A DNA stretch of 64,000 bases from an uncultured Gammaproteobacteria bacterium. GTDB lineage: Bacteria; Pseudomonadota; Gammaproteobacteria; JAURND01. This document shows positions 2,726-15,172 of the stretch, one piece after another (within the stretch, counting starts at the first letter, position 1; every line of letters starts with the position of its first letter). Under the pieces are notes generated by a model. That model did no database searches and was not told where the DNA came from. It saw only the letters and a list, made by a program, of their open reading frames with translations. The stretch is taken from NCBI GenBank assembly GCA_963714975.1, contig CAVQQD010000002.1:704001-768000 (forward strand), read 5' to 3'. The position numbers and the translations under genes were made by a program.

Positions 2726-3826
2726 ATGTCCAGTAATTCATTTGGAAATATTTTTCGCATCACCACCTTTGGTGAATCTCATGGCAAAGGAATTGGTGTC
2801 GTGATCGATGGTTGTCCCGCAGGATTAGCCCTAGAGGATGAAGATATCAACCAAGCCTTGGCCTTACGTGCTCCAGGTCGAAATCCCTATACTTCGCCAC
2901 GACAAGAAGCGGATCGAGCCGAAATTTATTCTGGGGTTTTTCAAGGAACAACCACGGGCGCTCCCATCGCCATCATTATCCTCAATAAAGATGCCGATTC
3001 CACTAAATACGAACCGATAAAAAATTTATTGCGCCCGGGCCATGCTAATTTTACCTATCTGGAAAAGTATGGCATTTTTGACTACCGTGGCGGAGGGCGT
3101 TCCTCAGCTCGTGAAACTGCCTGTCGGGTAGCTGCTGCCGCGGTGGCGAATAAATTATTAGCAACGGCAGGTATTACGGTAGCGGCTTATTTATCTGCAG
3201 TCGCGCAAATAAAAGCCAGCGTCAAACTGGATACTCCTTTAGAGCAGTGGCTTCCCAATATTTTACAAAGCCCTATTTTTTGCCCTGATCCAGTAGCCGA
3301 AACGCAAATGCAAGACTTGATCCTAAAAGCAAAGGAGCAAGGTGATTCCTTAGGTGGGGTGGCCACATTTGTGGCGACTGGCTTACCTGTGGGCCTAGGG
3401 GATCCGATCTATGAAAAAATAGAAGCCAACCTGGCTAAAGCCATGATGAGTTTACCGGCTACTAAAGGGTTTGAAATGGGAGAGGGTTTTCATGCCGTAG
3501 AAATGCATGGTTCCGAACATAATGATCCATTTATTATGGCTGAGGCGGAGCATAAAATCAGACCGGCAAGTAATTATGCCGGCGGAACCTTGGGTGGAAT
3601 AACTACAGGCCTGCCCTTATTAGGCCGGGTAGCGTTTAAGCCGACTTCCAGCATTACCAAGCCGCAAACCACCGTCAACTTAGCAGGGGATGCTAAACCC
3701 TTTAACTTGCCTGAAGGATCACGCCATGATCCCTGTGTCGCCATTCGTGGGGTACCCTGTGTCGCGGCGATGTGCTCTTTGGTGTTGGCGGACGCACTCC
3801 TATTGAATCGTTGTGTCAGGCTATGA
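2726..3826 (+). CDS. aroC: Chorismate synthase
   Basis: TFGESHG, RPGHA, GGGRSSARET, RHDPC. Confidence 0.98.
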   Translation: MSSNSFGNIFRITTFGESHGKGIGVVIDGCPAGLALEDEDINQALALRAPGRNPYTSPRQEADRAEIYSGVFQGTTTGAPIAIIILNKDADSTKYEPIKNLLRPGHANFTYLEKYGIFDYRGGGRSSARETACRVAAAAVANKLLATAGITVAAYLSAVAQIKASVKLDTPLEQWLPNILQSPIFCPDPVAETQMQDLILKAKEQGDSLGGVATFVATGLPVGLGDPIYEKIEANLAKAMMSLPATKGFEMGEGFHAVEMHGSEHNDPFIMAEAEHKIRPASNYAGGTLGGITTGLPLLGRVAFKPTSSITKPQTTVNLAGDAKPFNLPEGSRHDPCVAIRGVPCVAAMCSLVLADALLLNRCVRL

Positions 3827-4932
3827 AGACCTTATTAGTTCAGGCGGTAAGACCTTATTCTATCTATATCGCACCCGGCTTGCTAGACTCCTCTTTTTTA
3901 GTTGAGAAAATCCGCCCGCTAGGGCATCGGTTTGTAATCATTAGTGATTCTCAAGTCGCCGAATTGCTAGGCGAGCCTTGGTTAATTTTCTTATGTTCCC
4001 AGGGTTTGACTGTGGGTCTCATCAAATTTCCTAGTGGAGAAGCGTTCAAAACTCGCCAGACTAAGCAGCAACTTGAGGATGAATTATTTTTATTAAGCTG
4101 CCAGCGTGATACGGTCATTTTAGCCCTGGGAGGCGGGGTGGTTACGGATTTAGCTGGTTTTGTTGCCGCTACTTATTATCGTGGTATACCGGTTGTATAT
4201 ATCCCGACCAGCTTATTGGCCATGGTCGATGCGAGCATTGGCGGGAAAACCGCAGTCGACACTCCTTATGGTAAAAATTTAATTGGGGCATTTAGTTCAC
4301 CACGAGACGTATTTATCGATCCCAGCTTATTGCAAAGCTTACCAGAGCGAGAATTACGCAATGGCGCAGTTGAAATGATTAAGCACGCATTGATTGCTGA
4401 TCCGGATTTGTTTTTGCAATTACAACAACAACGCGAAGCCTTCTTCGCCTGTGACCCATTGATTCTCCAAGATTTAATTGAACGAAATTGCCAAATAAAA
4501 CGCCATGTTGTAGAGATAGATGAAATGGAGCAAGGTTTGCGGCAATTATTAAATTTTGGGCACACGATAGGACATGCCATAGAAAATCTAGATCAGTACC
4601 AAATACAGCATGGCGAAGCCGTTGCGATCGGCCTTATTTTAGAGAGTTTTCTTTCTCACCGGCGTGGTTATTTGTCCGCGGAAAATTTAAAAAAAATTCA
4701 AGAGATTATTTTTGCTTATGGAGTTAATTTGCAAACTACTGCATTGCAAGATGAGAACGCGTTTTGGCAGGCTTTAACTTATGATAAAAAAGCCAAAGCA
4801 GGGCAGGTACAAGTCGTAATGCTCGATGACATTGGTAAACCTCATCATGAACAAAATCAGGTTACCGTCAGCATTTCTCGAGAGGAAATAGCTGTTATGT
4901 TGCGAGAATCTGCTAGTTTATTGAATCATTAA
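3823..4932 (+). CDS. aroB: 3-dehydroquinate synthase
   Basis: GGGVVTDLAGF, DASIGGKT, LNFGHTIGHA; ATG at 3823 overlaps the aroC stop (ATGA) and is preferred to the GTG at 3772. Confidence 0.96.
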   Translation: MKTLLVQAVRPYSIYIAPGLLDSSFLVEKIRPLGHRFVIISDSQVAELLGEPWLIFLCSQGLTVGLIKFPSGEAFKTRQTKQQLEDELFLLSCQRDTVILALGGGVVTDLAGFVAATYYRGIPVVYIPTSLLAMVDASIGGKTAVDTPYGKNLIGAFSSPRDVFIDPSLLQSLPERELRNGAVEMIKHALIADPDLFLQLQQQREAFFACDPLILQDLIERNCQIKRHVVEIDEMEQGLRQLLNFGHTIGHAIENLDQYQIQHGEAVAIGLILESFLSHRRGYLSAENLKKIQEIIFAYGVNLQTTALQDENAFWQALTYDKKAKAGQVQVVMLDDIGKPHHEQNQVTVSISREEIAVMLRESASLLNH

Positions 4933-5061: not shown

Positions 5062-6750
5062 ATGAGCACAGCAAGGTCTGAAAAATTATTGAAAGCTATC
5101 AGGCAAGATGATGCAACCGCGGTTAGACAGATAATTGCCTCTGCAGAAGAAAATATTAATCAACTATTTCCCATAGATAATTGGAGAGAAATGGTCCCAA
5201 TAACCTATGCAATCACCTTGGGGAAAACACAGGCTTTAAGTGCTTTATTAGAAGCAAAACATTTACAAGTAAACCAAATAAACCTCGAAGGAGAAGACCC
5301 TCCCTTATTTCTTGCAATGAAAAACGACCAGTTAGAGTGCTTCAAAATTTTATTAGCCGACCCGAGGGTTGATATCAATGCAACTGGCACCATGTACAAA
5401 TACACTCCATTGATTGCGAGTGTTTCAACAAAAAAAAAACAATTCTTCCAGGCTTTACTTGACTCAAAAAGAGCGAGCGAACTTGATGTAAACAAACAAT
5501 GTCAAGACACGGTAGGCTCAGCAATTGGTTGGGCTGCCTTTAGAGCTGACTTATTTTATCTGCAAAAATTGTTGCGCCACCCTAAAATAATAATACAGGA
5601 TGATCAGAATCATATTAAAGATAAACTTGATAATGAGAAGAATCTCTCCAAAGCTGAAGATTTGAGATTGCTTGAAGAAGCCGTTGCACGCGGGCGTTTG
5701 AATGCAAATACAAATGAAAATCCCCAGCCCCCTAGTGAAAATAAAGTTACTGCACTTCAGCCTATCAGCGACGAAACAAGGCCTAACAGATTACTTCAAG
5801 CAATAAATGATGATAACGAAGAGGAGATTAGGCGGATAATTACCTCAAAGGAAGAGAATATTAATAAACGATTTACTATTGATTGTGGGGACGTCATGGT
5901 TCCTTTAACCTATGCAGTTACTAAGGGCAAAGCAAAGGCTTTAAAAGCTTTATTAGAGGCAAAGGATATAGAGTTAAACCCCAAAGAAGTGTCTGGCCTC
6001 CCTTTATTTCTCGCAATGAAAAACGACCAGTTAGAGTGCTTCAAAATTTTATTAGCCGACCCGAGGGTTGATATTAATGCAACTGACACTATGTACGCCA
6101 TTACTCCCTTGATTGACAGTGTTTATAAGAAAAAAGAACTATTCTTTAAGGCCTTACTAGAATCAAAAAGAAAAATAGATGTAAACAAATCTTCTGAACT
6201 ATCCACAGCACTTGAATGTGCTTGCAAGCCTACTGAACTATTTTATCTGCAAGCGTTGTTGCGCCTTCCTGAGATAACAGTACCTGATAAATCCCTCTAT
6301 GGTTCAGATATTCAAGTTGCTGCGCACATTAGATCCAAGCTTGATACAGCGCAAAATCTCTCAAGGACTGATGATTTGAGATTTTTAGACCAAGCCATTG
6401 CATGTGGAAATCCTGACCAAGGCAAATATAAGCGTAGATCAGGCATTTTTGTAGCTGTAGCAATTCCTTTAATTTATACCATTGGAGTTATCGGAATCCC
6501 TTTGGGATTTACGCGCAAACCTCAGGAGACCTATGAAGCTTTTGAAAAATTACATTTAGACGGTTTAATAGATAACATTTCGGAGTCGACAAAGGCCCAA
6601 GTAATGGCTGGGATGATAGGAGGGGTGCTTTTAATTGCATTGTTAGTTACTGCAGGTATTTTAATTAAGAACAATCCACCACCCGCAAAAGAATCTAAGG
6701 ATGATGGTAACCATTCACCACAATTAAATGGCAGCCAAGCCTTACAATGA
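5062..6750 (+). CDS. Ankyrin-repeat protein with internal duplication and two C-terminal TM segments (candidate secreted effector)
   Basis: Two copies of PLFLAMKNDQLECFKILLADPRVDINAT; TPL..A-type ankyrin motifs; two hydrophobic stretches near the C-terminus. Confidence 0.85.
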   Translation: MSTARSEKLLKAIRQDDATAVRQIIASAEENINQLFPIDNWREMVPITYAITLGKTQALSALLEAKHLQVNQINLEGEDPPLFLAMKNDQLECFKILLADPRVDINATGTMYKYTPLIASVSTKKKQFFQALLDSKRASELDVNKQCQDTVGSAIGWAAFRADLFYLQKLLRHPKIIIQDDQNHIKDKLDNEKNLSKAEDLRLLEEAVARGRLNANTNENPQPPSENKVTALQPISDETRPNRLLQAINDDNEEEIRRIITSKEENINKRFTIDCGDVMVPLTYAVTKGKAKALKALLEAKDIELNPKEVSGLPLFLAMKNDQLECFKILLADPRVDINATDTMYAITPLIDSVYKKKELFFKALLESKRKIDVNKSSELSTALECACKPTELFYLQALLRLPEITVPDKSLYGSDIQVAAHIRSKLDTAQNLSRTDDLRFLDQAIACGNPDQGKYKRRSGIFVAVAIPLIYTIGVIGIPLGFTRKPQETYEAFEKLHLDGLIDNISESTKAQVMAGMIGGVLLIALLVTAGILIKNNPPPAKESKDDGNHSPQLNGSQALQ

Positions 6751-6796
6751 TAAATTTAGCTCTATAAAGTTTTGTGGGTAAAAACCAGTGAATGAT

Positions 6797-6849
6797 CCCT
6801 TCTCCCACAGCGATTTTCTGTGGGAGAAGGTGCCGAAGGCGGATGAGGG
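6797..6849. repeat. Palindromic repeat, CCCTCATCCGGCC..CTTCTCCC family
   Basis: cttctcccacag..ctgtgggagaaggtgccgaaggcggatgaggg; related copies at 11880, 38313, 60147, 62957, 63606. Confidence 0.75.
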
Positions 6850-6953
6850 CAGATGTACTCCGATTTATGGATCAGGATTATGTCCCTTTCACTAACAATC
6901 AAGGTGAAAATGACATTCGTATGACCAAAGTTCAGCAAAAAATATCAGGATGT
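6850..6953 (+). mobile_element. IS66-family transposase fragment
   Basis: DVLRFMDQDYVPFTNNQGENDIRMTKVQQKISGC matches the recalled IS66 TnpC motif VPFxNNxxExDIRMxKVxQKISGC. Confidence 0.75.
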
Positions 6954-7008
6954 TTAGGCGCGCATTACTATCTTGCTGAGTTTCTAATACAGTTAATTGC
7001 GCTAGCAG
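6953..7008 (-). pseudogene. 56-bp fragment of an Rpn-family gene
   Basis: Matches 10419-10474 at 53 of 56 nt by eye. Confidence 0.8.
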
Positions 7009-7101
7009 GAAAGCAGGTTAGACTAGAAGCAGCAGAGGTAGGATTTTGGCGGAGCAGCCGAAATGTTGCTCTGCTGCTTCGTGCATAATCCTAGGTTTTT
7101 G

Positions 7102-7188
7102 GTGAGCTCAAACTGAACTGAAGTCCCGTCGCCCGCCTACGGGGTCCTGCCGCGCGAGCAACGGGACTTCAGTTCAGTTTGAGCTCAC
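7102..7188. repeat. MITE-like element with perfect 28-bp inverted arms
   Basis: gtgagctcaaactgaactgaagtcccgt (7102-7129) / acgggacttcagttcagtttgagctcac (7161-7188). Confidence 0.9.
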
Positions 7189-7294
7189 GAATCTCCTAAC
7201 CTTATGTAGTAGAAAATTCGCAGCTATATACTAGACTTACACGGAATAGGTTAAGTTATATGTGGAAATTTGTGAATTTTATGGGAGGTGTGTT

Positions 7295-7432
7295 ATGAGA
7301 ATTGAGAAAAAACCTGTTAAAATTTTAGATCCAGATTATGGTCGAAAGTGGACTAATGGAAATGGACCAGGAAAAATTGATGAAAAAGAATATTTGTCGT
7401 TGTGTGAAAAGGTAAAAAAATTGGAAAAATGA
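7295..7432 (+). CDS. 45-aa small ORF, candidate RiPP precursor (MRIEKKPVKILDPDYGRKWTNGNGPGKIDEKEYLSLCEKVKKLEK)
   Basis: GGAGGTG RBS at 7284-7290, ATG at 7295, TGA at 7430-7432; immediately upstream of two co-oriented YcaO genes; below the ORF-track size cutoff. Confidence 0.75.
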   Translation: MRIEKKPVKILDPDYGRKWTNGNGPGKIDEKEYLSLCEKVKKLEK

Positions 7433-7468
7433 TCCGCAGGGTCAAATTAAATGCATTAACTAAATATT

Positions 7469-7493
7469 AAGCTGTCATATGACATGGCAGCTT
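7469..7493 (+). terminator. Intercistronic stem-loop after the small ORF
   Basis: aagctgtcat-atgac-atggcagctt (10-bp stem, one G-U) followed by a weak U tract. Confidence 0.55.
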
Positions 7494-7533
7494 GATTTCG
7501 TTCGTTATATAATCCGGCGGGCTTATTCCTATC

Positions 7534-8739
7534 ATGATAAATTTCGAGCGTTCCTTCTCTCCCGATAATGCAATACACTATTTTGATAATAAAGAACATA
7601 ATTTAGAGATTGATTTAATTCGTTTTGATGGTAAATACCCAGTATATAAATGTTATTTGACCGATAATAATAATTCTCATACCTATATTGGTGGCGGTGG
7701 AGGATTGGGGTCTGCGAGCCAGGCTGCTGCACTTTTTGAATCTGCACAACATTATTTTTCGACACGTGGGTTACAAGATAATCTAAAAGACATCCATTTT
7801 TTTCCTATCGTTGAAGCCCCAGAATTGGGATATCTGTCAAAAACTGAATTTTTACCGGGTAATTTATGCAACTTCCCAGATCAAGAGCTTCCTTGGTTAC
7901 AATATAAAAGTTACACGGATGAACAAATCATCTATTATCCAGTAACATTGACCGAAGTTAGGTTGCACCATTTTCCTAAATTTAAAGATTATATGGATTT
8001 TAATTGGATGAGCCATGATACTGGCATGGCCATTGGCAGTGATTTTATGGAGGCAAGTATACATGGCATCAACGAATGGATTGAACGCGAATCATATGGT
8101 TTTTTATTATTGAAGTTATTTATTAATAAATCGAATAAAAAAATTCGTTTGCTAGATCATTTCACTATCCCAGAACATTTATTTCAACTTGTGAAATATA
8201 TTGAGCAAAATTTTAGCGATGATCTATTGATCGTTGATATAACTAGCGATATAAATGTACCTGCTTTTCTTGTCTCATTTACCAAACAACCAGCAATTTT
8301 CCAACCAAGGGGAATGGCTGCCTCATTATCCAAATCTTGTGCCTTGGAACGTGCTATCTATGAAGCTTTGCAGGCACGCATGCTTTACAATGAGAAATCT
8401 AAAGAATCGGAGTTTCATTGCATTAAGTCTTTAAAAAATACTCCTTTATTGTTAAAAGCTGCAGAATGTAACCTGACAGATTTAATCAATAACGACGAAT
8501 ATGTGTCTATTAATTTTTCGCAAGTTGCTGACTATTCTTCTTTGACCGACTTATCTGAACAGCTCAATAAACTGCATAATTTATTAAGCAGTAAAGGTCT
8601 TAAGGCTTTTTATCATTACTATGCATTAACTGATCACCTGGTATGTTTAGGGGTTATTATTCCAGGGCTAGATCAGTTTTTTATGGTGAGATGTGGTAGG
8701 TTTATTATGCCAAATTCTCGAGGATTGCAACTTTTGTAA
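7534..8739 (+). CDS. YcaO-family protein (degenerate first ATP-binding motif)
   Basis: TGMAIGSDFMEASIHGINEWIERES, VDITSDINVPAF, ALERAIYEALQ, IIPGLD; paralogous to the next gene. Confidence 0.85.
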   Translation: MINFERSFSPDNAIHYFDNKEHNLEIDLIRFDGKYPVYKCYLTDNNNSHTYIGGGGGLGSASQAAALFESAQHYFSTRGLQDNLKDIHFFPIVEAPELGYLSKTEFLPGNLCNFPDQELPWLQYKSYTDEQIIYYPVTLTEVRLHHFPKFKDYMDFNWMSHDTGMAIGSDFMEASIHGINEWIERESYGFLLLKLFINKSNKKIRLLDHFTIPEHLFQLVKYIEQNFSDDLLIVDITSDINVPAFLVSFTKQPAIFQPRGMAASLSKSCALERAIYEALQARMLYNEKSKESEFHCIKSLKNTPLLLKAAECNLTDLINNDEYVSINFSQVADYSSLTDLSEQLNKLHNLLSSKGLKAFYHYYALTDHLVCLGVIIPGLDQFFMVRCGRFIMPNSRGLQLL

Positions 8740-8758
8740 AAATAAAGGATAAATATTT

Positions 8759-10015
8759 ATGGATGAGAACTTTATCAATTGTGAACGCATTGTTCCTTCT
8801 ATCCAAGCTTTGAAGATTGTCATGACGGAATTAAATCATCTGGGTTTAGATTTGGAGTATAAATGTGCGGGAAATACTCTGCAAACATATCATTGCAAAT
8901 TGATTGATCCAGTGAATAATTGGATTTTTTATGGTTGTGGTAAGGGTATCGGCATCCAATCGAAGGTCAGTGCTACATTTGAGGCTCTGGAACATTATTA
9001 TTGTTATAAACTTGCTACCAATAATAAACATGATTCTTTAAAATTTATGAGTTATGCAGAGGTGTTGGGTAAAGAGTCAAATCTACCGGTATCAAATTTT
9101 TTACCTAAACGCATGATCGCAGAGGAATTTAGCAACATCACTCTGCCTTGGGTTGAATTTGTAACTTTTCAAAATAACAACGAATTTTATTATCCGTTAT
9201 TCTTAATCGAGCCCCACTATCTTAAATTTGGCGATAAATTTAATGAAGATTATTATGATTACCAGGATTTATGCTCATTAGCCTGTGACTCGGGGACAGC
9301 TTCAGGTAGTTCATTTATTGAGGCAGCGCTGCATGGACTAAATGAATGTGTTGAGCGTGATGCAACTTCAATTTTTTTAGTAGAAGCTTTCCTTAAACAA
9401 AACCCTATTCATTTAATTGATAAACTAACTTTACCTGAGAACTTGCTTCAATATGTCAAATTAATTGAGGAAGAATTTGATGATGAATTGGCAGTTGTAG
9501 ATATTACCTCTGATAGCGGTATCCCAACCTTTTGTGTAGCGTTTACTAGACAAAATGTATTGATACAACCCAAGGGATTTGGTACTTCATTAAATAAAAA
9601 TTATGCCTTGGAGCGAGCACTATTAGAATCATTACAGCCTTTGCACTTACGTAATGCAAATTTAGTGCAAATGGAAAAAATTATTTTACAAAATTTTGTG
9701 TCATATCCTAAATTACAGGCTGCAGCTATTGCAGATATAGCACAGATGGTTACGGATAAGAATTTTATTACCACTTCTTTTCAAAAATTAGCGGATCCTA
9801 TCCAAAATTATTCAGACATTTCCAGTCAATTAGTAGAAATTATCCGTAGAATAAACGCGATTGGATTAACCCCACATTACATGTATTTAACTGCAGCAGA
9901 AAATGAAGTGACTTGCTTAAAACTTATAGTTCCTGGGATGGATAACTTCTTTTTAGTTAGCGATGGAAAGTTAGTGTTGCCTGGTAAACGTAGTCTTAAA
10001 GAGAAGGATTTTTAG
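8759..10015 (+). CDS. YcaO-family protein (stand-alone, intact motifs)
   Basis: GCGKG..SATFEALEHY, SGTASGSSFIEAALHGLNECVERDA, DITSDSGIPTF, ALERALLE, IVPGMD. Confidence 0.92.
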   Translation: MDENFINCERIVPSIQALKIVMTELNHLGLDLEYKCAGNTLQTYHCKLIDPVNNWIFYGCGKGIGIQSKVSATFEALEHYYCYKLATNNKHDSLKFMSYAEVLGKESNLPVSNFLPKRMIAEEFSNITLPWVEFVTFQNNNEFYYPLFLIEPHYLKFGDKFNEDYYDYQDLCSLACDSGTASGSSFIEAALHGLNECVERDATSIFLVEAFLKQNPIHLIDKLTLPENLLQYVKLIEEEFDDELAVVDITSDSGIPTFCVAFTRQNVLIQPKGFGTSLNKNYALERALLESLQPLHLRNANLVQMEKIILQNFVSYPKLQAAAIADIAQMVTDKNFITTSFQKLADPIQNYSDISSQLVEIIRRINAIGLTPHYMYLTAAENEVTCLKLIVPGMDNFFLVSDGKLVLPGKRSLKEKDF

Positions 10016-10032
10016 GATGTTGAGTGAATTTG

Positions 10033-10098
10033 TGACTCAACAACCGATCTAATCAGCAAACACCTCATCTAAGGTTTTAGCATCAAAAATACGATCAG
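10033..10098 (+). repeat. 66-bp direct repeat, copy 1 (copy 2 at 11724-11789)
   Basis: tgactcaacaaccgat(c/t)taatcagcaaacacctcatctaaggttttagcatc..acgatcag at both sites. Confidence 0.9.
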
Positions 10099-10261
10099 CC
10101 CATAATAGGAGCGTATCGGCATCAGCTTGCATAACCTGGGTTAGGTAAGTGGAGGGTATCGAGTGAAAGCGACGCTGCAGCAGGCGAATTAATATAGTAG
10201 ATTCACCTTGTTGAATCCCCTCTTGTCTGCCAATACGTTGTGGGGTAGTAATATAATTCAT
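10049..10261 (-). CDS. Putative RpnS-like 70-aa protein from an internal start
   Basis: GAGGAGG-aaaaacgt-ATG internal RBS; frame intact to the Rpn stop. Confidence 0.55.
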   Translation of the reverse strand: MNYITTPQRIGRQEGIQQGESTILIRLLQRRFHSIPSTYLTQVMQADADTLLLWADRIFDAKTLDEVFAD

Positions 10262-10704
10262 ACGTTTTTCCTCCTCAATATGTTTTATGGCCTGATTGTA
10301 TATTGGCTCGAGTTCTTTGGGAAGGGTAATCAGCCAATCAAGCAAAGTAAATAACCGAATAATATCTTGTTTACTATAGCCTTTCTCATATAATTGGCGT
10401 GTAAGAGCCGTCTTAGCTTTTAGGCGTGCTTTACTATCTTGCTGAGTTTCTAATACAGTTAATTGCCCTAGCAGCACTATGGCAAAGCGATTGTTGGCAG
10501 CTTCAAGTTCTTGCCGACGGGTTTGATATGAACTCTTTATCCAAGGATTCGTAGTCTTTAAGACCAATCAATTTGTGTTGCAATATGGGGAAAACAAAAC
10601 TCCATAAAATCGCGAAAATAAAGGCCCAAGCTTTGTTTCCAGGGACTGTCATAATCGGGGCGAGTATCTTGTTTTTCAATAGGTGTAATTGTCTCGGTAT
10701 TCAT
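10049..10704 (-). pseudogene. Rpn-family (PD-(D/E)XK, putative transposase/nuclease) gene, broken, with large internal deletion
   Basis: N-terminus from 10704 reads MNTE..PDYDSPWK..YFRDF..FPHI..IDWS then stops; C-terminal part LDWLITLP..EEEKRM..GRQEGIQQGE..LDEVF lies in another frame. Confidence 0.8.
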
Positions 10705-10906
10705 CCGTTCATCTTAGAAAAAAATGAGGCTTTCGCAATACCGTAGTGGTGCCCACTTACACCCTAATGCAACACCGTTCTTGCATTTATTATATCTCGT
10801 TGAATAATAAGGAACCTCAGGTGGTGACACCTGAGGCGCGCGGTACGGATGTTACAAGCATCCGCGACCGAACTTCCACATGACAACTCAGTCAGGAGTT
10901 AGCCAT

Positions 10907-11743
10907 ATGACGTTTTTGATTTTAGCCTATCGTTGGTTGTTTCCAAACTGCTTTTTACATTTTGCCCCTGGTTGTCGTTTTCACCTTACCTTTTTGCAAT
11001 TGCGTAATGCAGCGATTAGTAATTTGTTAACGCGCAAGGATCCTTATTGGAAAGAGCTTCCGCTGCACTTATCTGCACGATTGGCATTAGTCCGCAGAAT
11101 GGACAAATTAAAAGCGAGCCTCCAGGAAGATAAAAAAGTAGTAAGATCTTTATACCCTTTGGTGTCATACATTACTGATTTTTCTGGAATTACTAATTTT
11201 TTGCCTAAAGAAGGCAAGTTAACAAAAAACGTTTTGGATGCGGATAGCCGGGCATTAGAGCGAACAGTAACATTGTATGAACGATTTTGCTCATCTACCT
11301 CTGAAGTCAAAGAGGCAAAGGACACAGATCATAACCCCACTCTCGAAATTAAAGGCACAAAGCCTCGAGACCTTGAGCTCGTCACAGATAATTCCGGCTC
11401 TTGTTGCAATATTAAGAAGATATTAAATTTTACTGCGCAAGGCATTGTTACATTACATGTATCCTCAGCTGTGACAATTGCTGTAACGGAATTAGGAAGC
11501 GTGGTAAAGGAATCCATTGGTAGAGGTTTTTTTGCCACAGTTACTAAATTCAATGACTTAATGTTGCAATCGAACTTTACTAAGGGAATAAGCGGGGCTT
11601 ATTTTGGATTAGCAGTTATATTATTTTTACTATGGCTTGCAAATAACTATCGTAAGAATAATTATATTCAAAAGGCACAGCATAACGACTACGAACAAAG
11701 ACTGCCTACAGCTAATTCTGCTATGACTCAACAACCGATTTAA
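10907..11743 (+). CDS. Hypothetical membrane protein (effector-like)
   Basis: Long ORF; AGGAG RBS 8 nt before ATG at 10907; C-terminal hydrophobic segment; no recognised family. Confidence 0.6.
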   Translation: MTFLILAYRWLFPNCFLHFAPGCRFHLTFLQLRNAAISNLLTRKDPYWKELPLHLSARLALVRRMDKLKASLQEDKKVVRSLYPLVSYITDFSGITNFLPKEGKLTKNVLDADSRALERTVTLYERFCSSTSEVKEAKDTDHNPTLEIKGTKPRDLELVTDNSGSCCNIKKILNFTAQGIVTLHVSSAVTIAVTELGSVVKESIGRGFFATVTKFNDLMLQSNFTKGISGAYFGLAVILFLLWLANNYRKNNYIQKAQHNDYEQRLPTANSAMTQQPI

Positions 11744-11975: not shown

Positions 11976-13403
11976 ATGCGTGTTGCAAGTATTATTGCTA
12001 ATAATTATGTCACTGCTCAGCAGCAAATAGCTGAAGCGGTCCCCTATGCTGACGTGATTGAATTACGTTTAGATTATTGGTCTAGTTTAGAGATTAGTGA
12101 AGTAAAAGAATTACGCGATTCCCTCACTTTACCAGTATTATTTACCTTGCGCACGAAAAGCCAAGGGGGTCATTGCACGCTTGAAGAATCGCAGCGTTTA
12201 TTGTTGCTTGAGCAATTGGCAAGTTTATTACCAGATTATATGGATTTGGAATTTGACGTTCCGGTTGAGTTTGCGCTTGCTTTGCGAGAAGAGTTTCCAC
12301 AAATTCAATTGATTCGCTCCTACCATGATTTTACTCAGACCCCAAATAATTTAGAAGCTTTGCTGCAAAAATTATATCATCCAGCCTTTCATTTCATTAA
12401 GATCGCAGTGTTTGCGCACACTATTCTCGACACGCTGCGTTTATTGCTATTTATCCAGCAAAATAGCCAAAAATATTCACTCATTGGCATTGCTATGGGC
12501 GAGTACGGCGAAGCCAGCCGCATTCTGGCACCAATATTGGGTAGTCGATTTACTTATGGCAGTATCAATACGGAGCAAGCAGCAGCGCCAGGGCAACTTA
12601 GTTTGGCAGAATTAACTAACACCTATCGGGTGCAGTTATTAAATCGGAGCACTGCTATTTATGCTTTGCTGGGGGACCCAGTAGCTTCAAGTCGCGGACC
12701 GATCTGGCATAATGCTTATTTTGCTAGTCATGATAAAAATGCAGTGTACATTCGCCTGCGTATTCCACCGGCTGATTTAGCGGCAGCAGTTGGGTATTTA
12801 CGACAATTACCCTTTTTTGGTTTTAGTCTCACCATGCCGCTAAAAGAAGATATTTGTCCGCATTTGGATCAGATCGATGAAGCGGATAAAGCCATTGGGG
12901 CGATTAATTCTATTGTAGTTACCGATGGAAAATGGCTTGGATTTAATACTGACGGTAAGGGAGCTATTGCTGCCATTGCTCAGCAGACAAGTGTCGCGAA
13001 TAAAACCGTGGTTATTTTAGGCGCGGGTGGGTCAGCAAAAGCGATTGCATTTGAGGCCGCAAAGCAAGGTGCTAAGCTTATTGTATTAAATCGCACTCCC
13101 GAGAAAGCAGAGCAATTGGCGCGATGGCTCAAAGCTAGAGGAGGTGGATTTGATCAACGCGATGGGTTATTAACAGAGGGTTATGATGTACTGATCAATA
13201 CCTTACCTCCTGCGGTCAATAATCGTGTCGAAGATTTTCCCTTACAAGCCACGCATTTTTTGCCAGGCGCAGTGGTAATGGATATTGTTTACAACCAAGG
13301 TGACACAGCCTTTCTCAAGTTAGCTAAATTAGCTGGCTGTCGCATTGTCGACGGTAATGAGATGTTTGTCCAACAGGCACTTTTACAACAGCAACGATGG
13401 TAA
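11976..13403 (+). CDS. aroE: Bifunctional type I 3-dehydroquinate dehydratase / shikimate dehydrogenase (AroDE)
   Basis: N-terminal IELRLD, SYHDF, MGEYG, APGQ; C-terminal TMPLK, NTDG, GAGGSA. Confidence 0.92.
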   Translation: MRVASIIANNYVTAQQQIAEAVPYADVIELRLDYWSSLEISEVKELRDSLTLPVLFTLRTKSQGGHCTLEESQRLLLLEQLASLLPDYMDLEFDVPVEFALALREEFPQIQLIRSYHDFTQTPNNLEALLQKLYHPAFHFIKIAVFAHTILDTLRLLLFIQQNSQKYSLIGIAMGEYGEASRILAPILGSRFTYGSINTEQAAAPGQLSLAELTNTYRVQLLNRSTAIYALLGDPVASSRGPIWHNAYFASHDKNAVYIRLRIPPADLAAAVGYLRQLPFFGFSLTMPLKEDICPHLDQIDEADKAIGAINSIVVTDGKWLGFNTDGKGAIAAIAQQTSVANKTVVILGAGGSAKAIAFEAAKQGAKLIVLNRTPEKAEQLARWLKARGGGFDQRDGLLTEGYDVLINTLPPAVNNRVEDFPLQATHFLPGAVVMDIVYNQGDTAFLKLAKLAGCRIVDGNEMFVQQALLQQQRW

Positions 13404-13465: not shown

Positions 13466-15172
13466 ATGCAATTACCATTAGGTTATGATAATTTCAAAGC
13501 AATTATCGACAAACAACTGGATTTTGTGGATAAAAGCTTATTGATCAAAGAAATTCTTGATGACTTTGCAACACAGATCGTTGTAATCACCCGTCCGCGC
13601 CGTTTTGGCAAAACTTTAAATTTATCCATGTTGCATCACTTTTTAGCAGCAGAGGCGTATGGACAATCCACGCAGGGATTATTCGATGGCCTAAAAATTT
13701 CGGCTTTGAGCCAGGAGTATCTGCAACATCAAGGCCACTATCCCGTGATCTTTGTTACCTTTAAGGATGTTAAAGATCATGGTTTTGAAGAAGCGCTACA
13801 AAAACTAGCGATCTTAATGATGAAAGTATATGCAGAACATCGTTATTTATTAGCAAGTCCCCAATTATACGCGGCAGACAAAATATTTTATAACAATATC
13901 CTAAATCTAGAAGCCAATCAAAGCATGCTGGAAGCAGCACTAGAACGCTTAACTTTTTATCTATTTCAGCATCATGGCGTCAAACCCTGGCTGCTGATTG
14001 ATGAATACGATACGCCGATTCAATCTAGTTATTTGTATGATTATTACCGACCCATGGTAAATTGCTTACGTAATGTATTTGGCGTTGCATTAAAAACTAA
14101 TCCTTACCTGGAAAAAGCGGTGATTACCGGTATCTTGCGAGTGGCAAAAGAAAGTTTGTTTTCCGGGTTAAATAACTTAAAAGTGTACACCCTAACCAAT
14201 TCTCAATACGGGCAGTATTTTGGTTTTACTGAAGAGGAGGTCGGAAATTTATTACATAGGGCAGGATTGCAACAACAAGCTCAGGCTATTCGGGATTGGT
14301 ACAATGGCTATCAAGTAGGAACCCACACGGTTTACAATCCTTGGTCCATGGTGAATTGCATTCGCGAACAAGGCGAGTTAGCGGCTTACTGGGTCAATAC
14401 CAGTGATAACCAATTAATTAAAACCATCTTGCTTGGTTCCAGTGAAAGTTTTAGAACACAATTTGAGGATTTATTACAAAATAAAACAGTCAAAAAAATC
14501 ATCGACGAAAATATGGTATTTGATGATCTGAGAAAAAATGAAAAAGCGGCCTGGAGTTTGTTGTTTATGGCGGGCTACTTAAAGGTGATTTCTTCCGAGC
14601 GAATTGAAGCGCAATTGCATTGCCAATTAGATATTCCCAATCGCGAAGTGCGTAGTTTATATCGCGAAATTATTCGGCAATGGTTATCGAATGGTTATGG
14701 CACAGAATGGTTCGATTCCTTTTTAAATCATTTACTCACGGGTAATTTAGTCGCCTTTGAGCATGATTTAAAACATCTGGTGGAGGAAACGTTTAGCGTC
14801 CACGATGTCTCTAAAGATCCCGAAGTTTTTTATCATGGCTTTATGGTGGGTGCAACGGCGAGCCTTTACAACAATCGAAATTATGAAATTAAATCGAATC
14901 GAGAGAGTGGCTATGGTCGTTATGACTACATGATATTTTCTCATGATGAAAACAAGCCGACCATTATAATTGAACTCAAACGCGTGCCAAAAAATACTCC
15001 GAATTTAGATCAGGCATTAGAACATGCAGCACAACAAGCTTTGGAGCAAATACAATTACAAAGTTATACAACTGAAGCCAGGCAGCGAGGCAGAACTAAT
15101 ATACTAAAACTTGGTTTGGCTTTTTCGGGCAAGCAGTTTAGACTACTATCACTCTTTGAGGAACGAAAATGA
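13466..15172 (+). CDS. AAA-ATPase-like protein with C-terminal PD-(D/E)XK nuclease domain
   Basis: RPRRFGKT, LIDEYD, SNRESGYGRYD, IIIELK. Confidence 0.9.
   Translation: MQLPLGYDNFKAIIDKQLDFVDKSLLIKEILDDFATQIVVITRPRRFGKTLNLSMLHHFLAAEAYGQSTQGLFDGLKISALSQEYLQHQGHYPVIFVTFKDVKDHGFEEALQKLAILMMKVYAEHRYLLASPQLYAADKIFYNNILNLEANQSMLEAALERLTFYLFQHHGVKPWLLIDEYDTPIQSSYLYDYYRPMVNCLRNVFGVALKTNPYLEKAVITGILRVAKESLFSGLNNLKVYTLTNSQYGQYFGFTEEEVGNLLHRAGLQQQAQAIRDWYNGYQVGTHTVYNPWSMVNCIREQGELAAYWVNTSDNQLIKTILLGSSESFRTQFEDLLQNKTVKKIIDENMVFDDLRKNEKAAWSLLFMAGYLKVISSERIEAQLHCQLDIPNREVRSLYREIIRQWLSNGYGTEWFDSFLNHLLTGNLVAFEHDLKHLVEETFSVHDVSKDPEVFYHGFMVGATASLYNNRNYEIKSNRESGYGRYDYMIFSHDENKPTIIIELKRVPKNTPNLDQALEHAAQQALEQIQLQSYTTEARQRGRTNILKLGLAFSGKQFRLLSLFEERK

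Follow-up and report, generated by a model that had tools for sequence, protein, structure and literature searches.

The stretch analysed here, referred to as the window, comprises 64,000 nucleotides of contig CAVQQD010000002.1 (positions 704,001 to 768,000, forward strand) from assembly GCA_963714975.1 of an uncultured Gammaproteobacteria bacterium. It encodes two adjacent proteins of the YcaO family on the forward strand. YcaO1 (7534-8739, 401 amino acids, ATG start) is a first-position paralogue with a degenerate nucleotide site. YcaO2 (8759-10015, 418 amino acids) is a canonical second-position YcaO and, judging from its sequence, the presumed catalytic subunit. Only 19 nt separate the two genes. 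Upstream of them, on the same strand, lies a previously unannotated open reading frame (ORF) of 45 amino acids (MRIEKKPVKILDPDYGRKW..., 7295-7432), a candidate substrate or precursor peptide of the pair. We call the three genes the module, and the groups of first- and second-position YcaOs clade A and clade B. The sequence comparisons below support the view that YcaO1 is degenerate but conserved, and that it partners an intact YcaO. They also point to the small upstream ORF, which an earlier note on this DNA overlooked, as the likely substrate.

Both proteins are clear members of the YcaO family. Against Pfam PF02624 (cut-off 25.7), YcaO1 scored 102.7 bits and YcaO2 130 bits. The match of YcaO2 covered profile positions 2-324 and that of YcaO1 positions 71-324 only. 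Since it begins only at position 71, the first nucleotide motif in the N-terminal part of YcaO1 is too deviant to align. The YcaO-type kinase domain TIGR00702 was just reached by YcaO2 (76.0, cut-off 75.65). Neither YcaO reached the cut-offs of the SagD/TOMM, McrA-thioamidation or E. coli S12/uL16-type families: the SagD family TIGR03604 scored the pair at 67.5 and 79.3 (cut-off 219.25), TIGR03266 at 39.5 and 64.2 (cut-off 365), and NF040716, the E. coli-type YcaO family (cut-off 700), gave 24 bits for YcaO2 and no match for YcaO1.

The two proteins share 34% identity over 379 columns (BLASTP, E 3e-71), in an alignment that sets GGGGGLGSASQAAALFESAQHY opposite GCGKGIGIQSKVSATFEALEHY. In YcaO2 numbering, YcaO1 carries K62>G, Q67>A, S71>A and E78>Q. 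The earlier note had reported the changes of Lys, Ser and Glu, and all three are real; Q67>A is a fourth one absent from it. YcaO1 retains E75, E196, E199, R200, R286 and E290, which agrees with the earlier observation that the second motif (NEWIERE in one protein, NECVERD in the other) keeps both Glu and the Arg. The reading frame of YcaO1 was likewise correctly described as intact and full length, its start aligning with residue 1 of its orthologues. YcaO2 retains all residues that are invariant in 29 and in 51 clade-B sequences. Thus the canonical site (the Lys of GKG, a Gln, SxxxExxE, ExxER and ER..E) is complete in YcaO2 and incomplete in YcaO1. The positions of this site, among them the Lys and the SxxxExxE residues, are reported to bind ATP and Mg in E. 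coli YcaO (Dunbar et al. 2014).

Three observations favour this assignment indirectly. The motif GKG..Q.K.SA..EA.E is common to the nucleotide-bound solved YcaOs LynD, MusD, MJ1094 and the M. kandleri YcaO, and it does not vary among 51 clade-B sequences. According to PMC6395948, three helices form the ATP coordination sphere with conserved Mg-coordinating Glu residues, and changing one of these Glu residues nearly abolished activity. The E202A variant of E. coli YcaO is used as an impaired variant in PMC13063428. An AlphaFold2 model of YcaO1, with the clade-A alignment as input, was confident (pLDDT 90.3, pTM 0.92) and showed a complete YcaO fold, with TM scores of 0.73/0.77 to the M. jannaschii YcaO 6PEU. 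The best solved relative of clade B and YcaO2 by profile was MJ1094 (E 7e-21).

A word-indexed search of 5.8 billion proteins gave 12 relatives for YcaO1 and 60 for YcaO2, and an exhaustive search of 1.84 billion representatives gave 680 YcaOs at E<=1e-3. We built a tree of 196 retrieved YcaOs of 330-470 amino acids (FastTree, LG+gamma, midpoint-rooted), leaving out fragments and four long proteins. Clade A (support 0.97) consisted of exactly the 20 YcaOs with deviant sites, each without at least one conserved ATP/Mg residue. Clade B (52 tips, support 0.94) consisted of YcaO2 and 51 others, all canonical. The two clades were sisters, and their joint node (support 1.0) had no other members. By this tree, YcaO1 and YcaO2 are best read as the products of one ancient duplication.

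The two clades differ strongly in how they treat the nucleotide site. In 51 clade-B sequences, K62, Q67, S71, E75, E78, E196, E199, R200, R286 and E290 were each 100% conserved. Comparatively, among 18 clade-A sequences the retention was 28% for K62, 33% for Q67, 39% for S71, 100% for E75, 50% for E78, 72% for E196, 100% for E199, 72% for R200, 39% for R286 and 100% for E290. The recurrence of the window's substitutions, which the earlier note had proposed to check, was thereby found: among these 18 first-position YcaOs, nine have the E>Q change, and all nine belong to the window's sub-clade; 13 are without the Lys and 11 without the Ser. The losses take different forms in different branches. 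E78>Q is the change in the window's sub-clade, some members of which also carry R200>Q/C/K, and K62>S/C, S71>K and R286>Q are found in the Legionella sub-clade. That different ligands were lost in different clade-A lineages suggests that constraint on the ATP site has been lifted. Relaxation also extends to the C-terminal G-K-x-x-x-P, which is near-invariant in clade B; its Pro is kept in 33% of clade-A sequences.

Clade A has conserved features of its own. It has 32 columns that are at least 94% conserved, compared with 68 in clade B. Within the site helices it shows clade-specific invariant residues, namely T163, G178 and W182. The second site helix carries the last of these between its two Glu; in clade B this residue is A, L, C or S.

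We estimated the ratio of nonsynonymous to synonymous substitution rates (dN/dS) by the Nei-Gojobori method. As dS was saturated in five of seven orthologue pairs, two values were usable, both with dS near saturation. The window compared with L015 gave 0.138 for A and 0.081 for B, and L010 compared with L012 gave 0.168 and 0.149, respectively. The first-position gene thus has a ratio below 1 in both, as the earlier note had expected of a maintained gene. In all seven pairs dN was higher for A than for B, by a factor of 1.1-1.25. We also compared A-A with B-B distances over 15 linked pairs, six of which had been matched solely because their contigs were equally long. The Mantel correlation was 0.96, a value reached by none of 2000 permutations, and in 101 of 105 comparisons A had diverged more than its partner. 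Purifying selection acts on clade A, which is co-inherited with clade B. YcaO1 would therefore count as a pseudoenzyme in the general sense, that is, a protein whose motif residues are lost and whose gene is maintained together with an active paralogue.

We scanned one-genome-per-species contigs (five loci) and metagenome contigs (36 loci), scoring all ORFs of at least 100 amino acids against A and B profiles and taking a score above 520 bits as true clade B. Twelve loci had such a clade-B gene with DNA upstream of it, namely the window, L010-L019 and L023, and in all 12 a clade-A ORF came directly before it. Two further loci, L026 and L029, end at the contig edge and are uninformative. Loci with lower scores held single YcaOs outside clades A and B. 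In four Legionella-type loci the A ORF runs 11-35 nt into the B ORF, and in Coxiella burnetii the pair is present as neighbouring locus tags.

In the window, a GGAGG lies 8 nt 5′ of the ATG of the short ORF that precedes the pair. A homologous short ORF of 43-57 amino acids with a Shine-Dalgarno-like site was found upstream of A in 10 of 10 paired loci with upstream DNA. Nine residues are invariant in the ten peptides (D12, D14, G16, R17, G22, G24, G26, Y33 and L36), and they make up the motif D-x-D-[YF]-G-R...G-x-G-x-G and two positions after it. A profile search of the 5.8-billion-protein collection found 62 homologues, including proteins of Legionella cincinnatiensis, L. birminghamensis and L. 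quinlivanii, and all are called "hypothetical" where they are named. The window peptide had no match in Pfam or NCBIfam, and a Legionella peptide fell only into unnamed clusters of the protein atlas. The peptide is conserved along its whole length and has no variable core. No conserved Cys or Ser column exists among the 62 peptides; a Thr follows the G-R in 41 of them, and the window peptide is not one of these. Peptides with D-P-D-[YF]-G-R occur with a Gln-type A protein (5/5 loci) and those with D-K-D-Y-G-R occur with a Ser/Lys-type A protein (5/5), an agreement that may reflect simple shared descent.

The gap that separates the peptide gene from YcaO1 holds a 13-bp hairpin with a T-rich run behind it (7466-7506, forward strand), which could be a partial terminator or attenuator, although this is uncertain. 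The RNA fold of 7425-7540 has an energy of -28.2 kcal/mol (z -2.61), and none of 200 shuffled sequences was as good. The consensus terminator scan made no call at 7466-7506. Across 6700-10900, the scan gave 16 promoter-like sites against 16.0 expected and two terminator-like sites against 2.9 expected. The spacing between the peptide and the YcaO gene is not conserved in other loci.

Other partners were not conserved. Among 43 neighbouring ORFs of 10 loci, the Pfam search showed no conserved E1/ThiF-like protein, SagB-type dehydrogenase, TfuA, protease or exporter. A single kind of neighbour recurred, a LysR-type regulator of 287-291 amino acids, which is downstream of the YcaO pair and on its strand in five loci: L010 (10416-11288), L011 (9256-10116), L012 (9263-10135), L018 (5207-6079) and L023 (2126-2998). 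In L018 it is placed after a DUF1543 gene, and the window has no LysR-type regulator.

The module is rare. It was present in none of eight genomes of the same family and in one of 400 sampled genomes of the class, which is the window's own; two other genomes had single, weaker YcaO matches. The GC content of the module stretch is 0.34-0.38, compared with 0.41-0.48 around it. The module is flanked by a 98-amino-acid C-terminal fragment of an IS66-family transposase (6792-7088, forward strand) and by a gene for a DUF4351 protein of 172 amino acids (10049-10567, reverse strand). On one side lies aroB (3772-4932) and on the other a fusion of aroD and aroE (11976-13403). The dip in GC content to 0.34, the IS66 fragment and the DUF4351 gene suggest an acquired island between shikimate-pathway genes, and the module looks like such an island rather than a trait of the lineage. 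The sequencing runs listed for this stretch were two of soil DNA, both with small word shares, and included none of RNA.

Several other features of this region and genome were observed. Just upstream of the peptide gene is an 88-nt near-perfect palindrome (7101-7188) with 26-bp arms and a GC-rich centre. Matches to parts of this palindrome were found at 36 sites across all three contigs of the genome, which marks it as a dispersed palindromic repeat or an element like a miniature inverted-repeat transposable element. A 562-amino-acid protein (5062-6750, forward strand) has two nearly identical halves of ankyrin repeats, with a hydrophobic stretch towards its C terminus; eukaryote-like proteins of this kind are common in intracellular bacteria. 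Between the island and aroD/aroE is an ORF of 287 amino acids (10880-11743, forward strand) with a hydrophobic C-terminal segment and no match in Pfam or NCBIfam. Between aroD/aroE and queF, a predicted AAA-ATPase is fused to a PD-(D/E)XK nuclease domain (13466-15172, forward strand, 568 amino acids). The genome has a third YcaO of 382 amino acids with a canonical GKG...S...ExxE site, on contig 3. Immediately downstream of it is the gene for a protein of about 500 amino acids with a TfuA domain, the only TfuA of the genome, and the two (471283-475738; loci L001 and L051) form a separate thioamide-type pair. Among the YcaOs outside clades A and B, the high-GC proteins P0093 (796 amino acids) and P0113 (841 amino acids) are natural fusions of two complete YcaO units. 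The first unit of P0093 has GFGEG, in which the Lys is lost, and the second has GTGKG. These fusions show that two YcaO units can function within a single chain, and they faintly favour the reading preferred below.

We consider it somewhat probable that the pair acts on the small peptide with YcaO2 as its ATP-dependent catalyst, and that YcaO1 has been retained as a non-catalytic paralogue in the place of an E1/RRE or TfuA partner. The module would then comprise three genes, for the 45-amino-acid peptide, YcaO1 and YcaO2. With its full ATP/Mg site, YcaO2 would phosphorylate a backbone amide of the peptide. YcaO1 would have kept the YcaO fold and no longer need the nucleotide site; in a hetero-complex with YcaO2 it might hold the peptide, activate YcaO2, or both. 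Because the peptides have no conserved Cys or Ser, and the Thr is missing at the relevant position in the window, an azoline is an unlikely product. More likely candidates are a thioamide or an amidine-type link inside the D-x-D-[YF]-G-R...G-x-G-x-G stretch. The earlier note had proposed an active/inactive heterodimer in which YcaO1 binds the substrate in place of an E1/RRE partner or, as an alternative on which our data do not bear either way, a YcaO with altered chemistry such as proteolysis. The conserved degenerate partner of an intact YcaO is borne out by the present data, and the inability to use ATP, the heterodimer and the binding of substrate would be further steps beyond them.

Several observations weigh against this interpretation. 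The clade-A set was picked by motif beforehand, so its definition is partly circular; what is informative is the absence of canonical sequences from it. Some of the scanned loci encode proteins that were also used in building the A and B profiles. The equivalents of E75, E199 and E290 are invariant in clade A, as is H192 and, mostly, N195. Gln is also able to ligate Mg. With three invariant Glu residues and a Gln as Mg ligand, the site in clade A could be a weakened or altered nucleotide site rather than a lost one. Constraint has also been lost outside the ten ligand positions. Of 59 near-invariant clade-B columns, only 17 are conserved to at least 90% in A: three among the 10 ligand columns and 14 among the other 49. 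In L014, a contig of an uncultured Legionellaceae, the A gene (6750-7957) is split into two overlapping frames and the B gene and peptide ORF are intact, and P0012 is shorter by about 70 residues. The split in L014 is either a frameshift or an assembly error; both it and the gap may be assembly errors, or A may be dispensable. The data show the substitutions, the clade structure, the fixed gene order, the purifying selection and the want of other conserved partners; from these we infer the loss of ATP use by YcaO1, the association of YcaO1 with YcaO2, the role of the peptide as substrate and the non-azoline chemistry.

The whole fold, the three invariant site Glu and the invariant His of clade A would also be expected if both YcaOs were active, each adding a different modification to the peptide as in bottromycin, with YcaO1 using a variant nucleotide site. 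A is nearly as constrained as B, given that dN is only slightly higher in the seven pairs, and the two bottromycin YcaOs act without a partner according to PMC8442711. However, clade A conserves no single set of ligands: each of the Lys, the Ser, the second Glu and the two Arg has been lost in one lineage or another. In addition, a survey of 2015 (PMC4603692) describes all YcaO groups then known as keeping the canonical pocket. We regard two active enzymes, the main rival, as unlikely. The clade-specific W182, T163 and G178 in the site helices raise the different idea that YcaO1 has gained an ATP-independent activity, its pocket binding another ligand or part of the peptide, or the protein serving as a peptidase on the modified peptide. 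A YcaO peptidase is known from the title of PDB entry 7U58, but that title calls the peptidase ATP-dependent, and nothing in our analysis points to hydrolysis. A new activity of this kind appears distinctly improbable.

The pair might instead modify a cellular protein, as E. coli YcaO does on uL16 and an archaeal YcaO on McrA, with the small ORF encoding an accessory factor or regulator. This would suit a peptide that is conserved over its whole length without a variable core, the want of a conserved exporter or protease near the 10 loci and the LysR regulator linked in five; protein substrates of YcaOs are established (PMC13063428). It fits poorly with the strict synteny of the peptide (10/10 loci). 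The peptide type also tracks the type of YcaO-A in both groups of five loci, an agreement confounded by shared ancestry, and a rare, mobile module found in one of 400 genomes of the class would suit a housekeeping target poorly. We hold a protein substrate to be slightly less probable again than a new activity. The substituted site residues and the split orthologue in L014 could also be taken as signs that YcaO1 is a decaying duplicate without function, which we consider very improbable. Intact YcaO1 orthologues span 27-65% identity, the deviant site recurs across clade A at dN/dS values of 0.14-0.17 where decay would have left orthologues with canonical motifs, and the highly conserved clade-A columns and the confident model point the same way. 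Simple decay is thus refuted by the conservation of YcaO1. The reading that we prefer remains that of a non-catalytic YcaO1 acting together with a catalytic YcaO2.

Among known systems, the nearest architectural parallel is bottromycin, likened here by its description. BotC and BotCD are, like the YcaOs of the module, encoded by two stand-alone genes beside a precursor gene, in one RiPP cluster, and have no E1-like partner; both are said to act without a partner protein (PMC8442711). Each of them is reported to be active and to give a different product, whereas the window pair consists of sister paralogues in a fixed order, one of them with a degenerate site. The nearest solved relatives of the pair are the TfuA-associated, thioamide-forming MJ1094 (6PE3/6PEU) and the M. 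kandleri YcaO (6CI7/6CIB). These archaeal proteins resemble the window pair in being stand-alone, in having about 380-400 amino acids and in lacking a PxPxP tail, but none of the 10 module loci has a TfuA.

For the role proposed for YcaO1, the closest functional counterparts are the E1-like, Ocin-ThiF-like and RRE partners of azoline-forming YcaOs, such as McbB in McbBCD. These proteins are non-catalytic; they hold the peptide and also touch the YcaO at its nucleotide site (PMC6395948). Their folds are unrelated to that of YcaO1, which is itself a YcaO paralogue. The TOMM cyclodehydratases (the SagD family; LynD, TruD and MusD) share the YcaO domain with the pair, with significant matches in sequence and fold, but the module has no fused or adjacent E1 domain, no dehydrogenase and no conserved Cys or Ser in its peptide. 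E. coli YcaO, which thioamidates uL16, activates an amide with ATP and needs no adjacent partner (PMC13063428). It differs in its protein substrate and in an extra C-terminal dimerisation domain (PMC6395948); proteins of its type have about 580 amino acids with this domain, compared with 401 and 418 in the window pair. Viewed as a possible RiPP biosynthetic cluster, which would pair a short precursor gene with its modifying enzyme and yield a modified product, the module has a conserved short ORF in 10/10 loci, a peptide without a variable core and no linked protease or exporter. We also considered trifolitoxin-type tiarin clusters, including an example from Legionella birminghamensis, and rejected them: the dehydrogenases TfxB and TfxC are required there, and none is near the module.

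How YcaOs without a partner recognise their substrates is only partly understood. A full-text search, with subscription papers and supplements outside its scope, found no paper that describes this pair, nor one on any inactive YcaO or pseudo-YcaO. We tentatively propose, at somewhat less than even confidence, that clade A is the first pseudo-YcaO, in which an ATP pocket with an invariant Trp has been turned into a substrate-recognition or activating subunit of its sister. With the 45-amino-acid peptide, it would form a new three-gene family of peptide modification in Legionella species, Coxiella burnetii and uncultured relatives. The modification would be a non-azoline one of the peptide backbone, and its product could be an intracellular cofactor or a signal that is sensed by the linked LysR regulator.

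If this were true, it would be a new route to substrate recognition, in which an enzyme has recruited a dead copy of itself, and the pair would be a clean system for probing the role of the pocket residues. The unannotated peptide family has 62 members; its invariant motif is unusual and it lacks residues that form azolines, and its chemistry may therefore be new. The module is carried by intracellular bacteria, such as Coxiella burnetii and several Legionella species.

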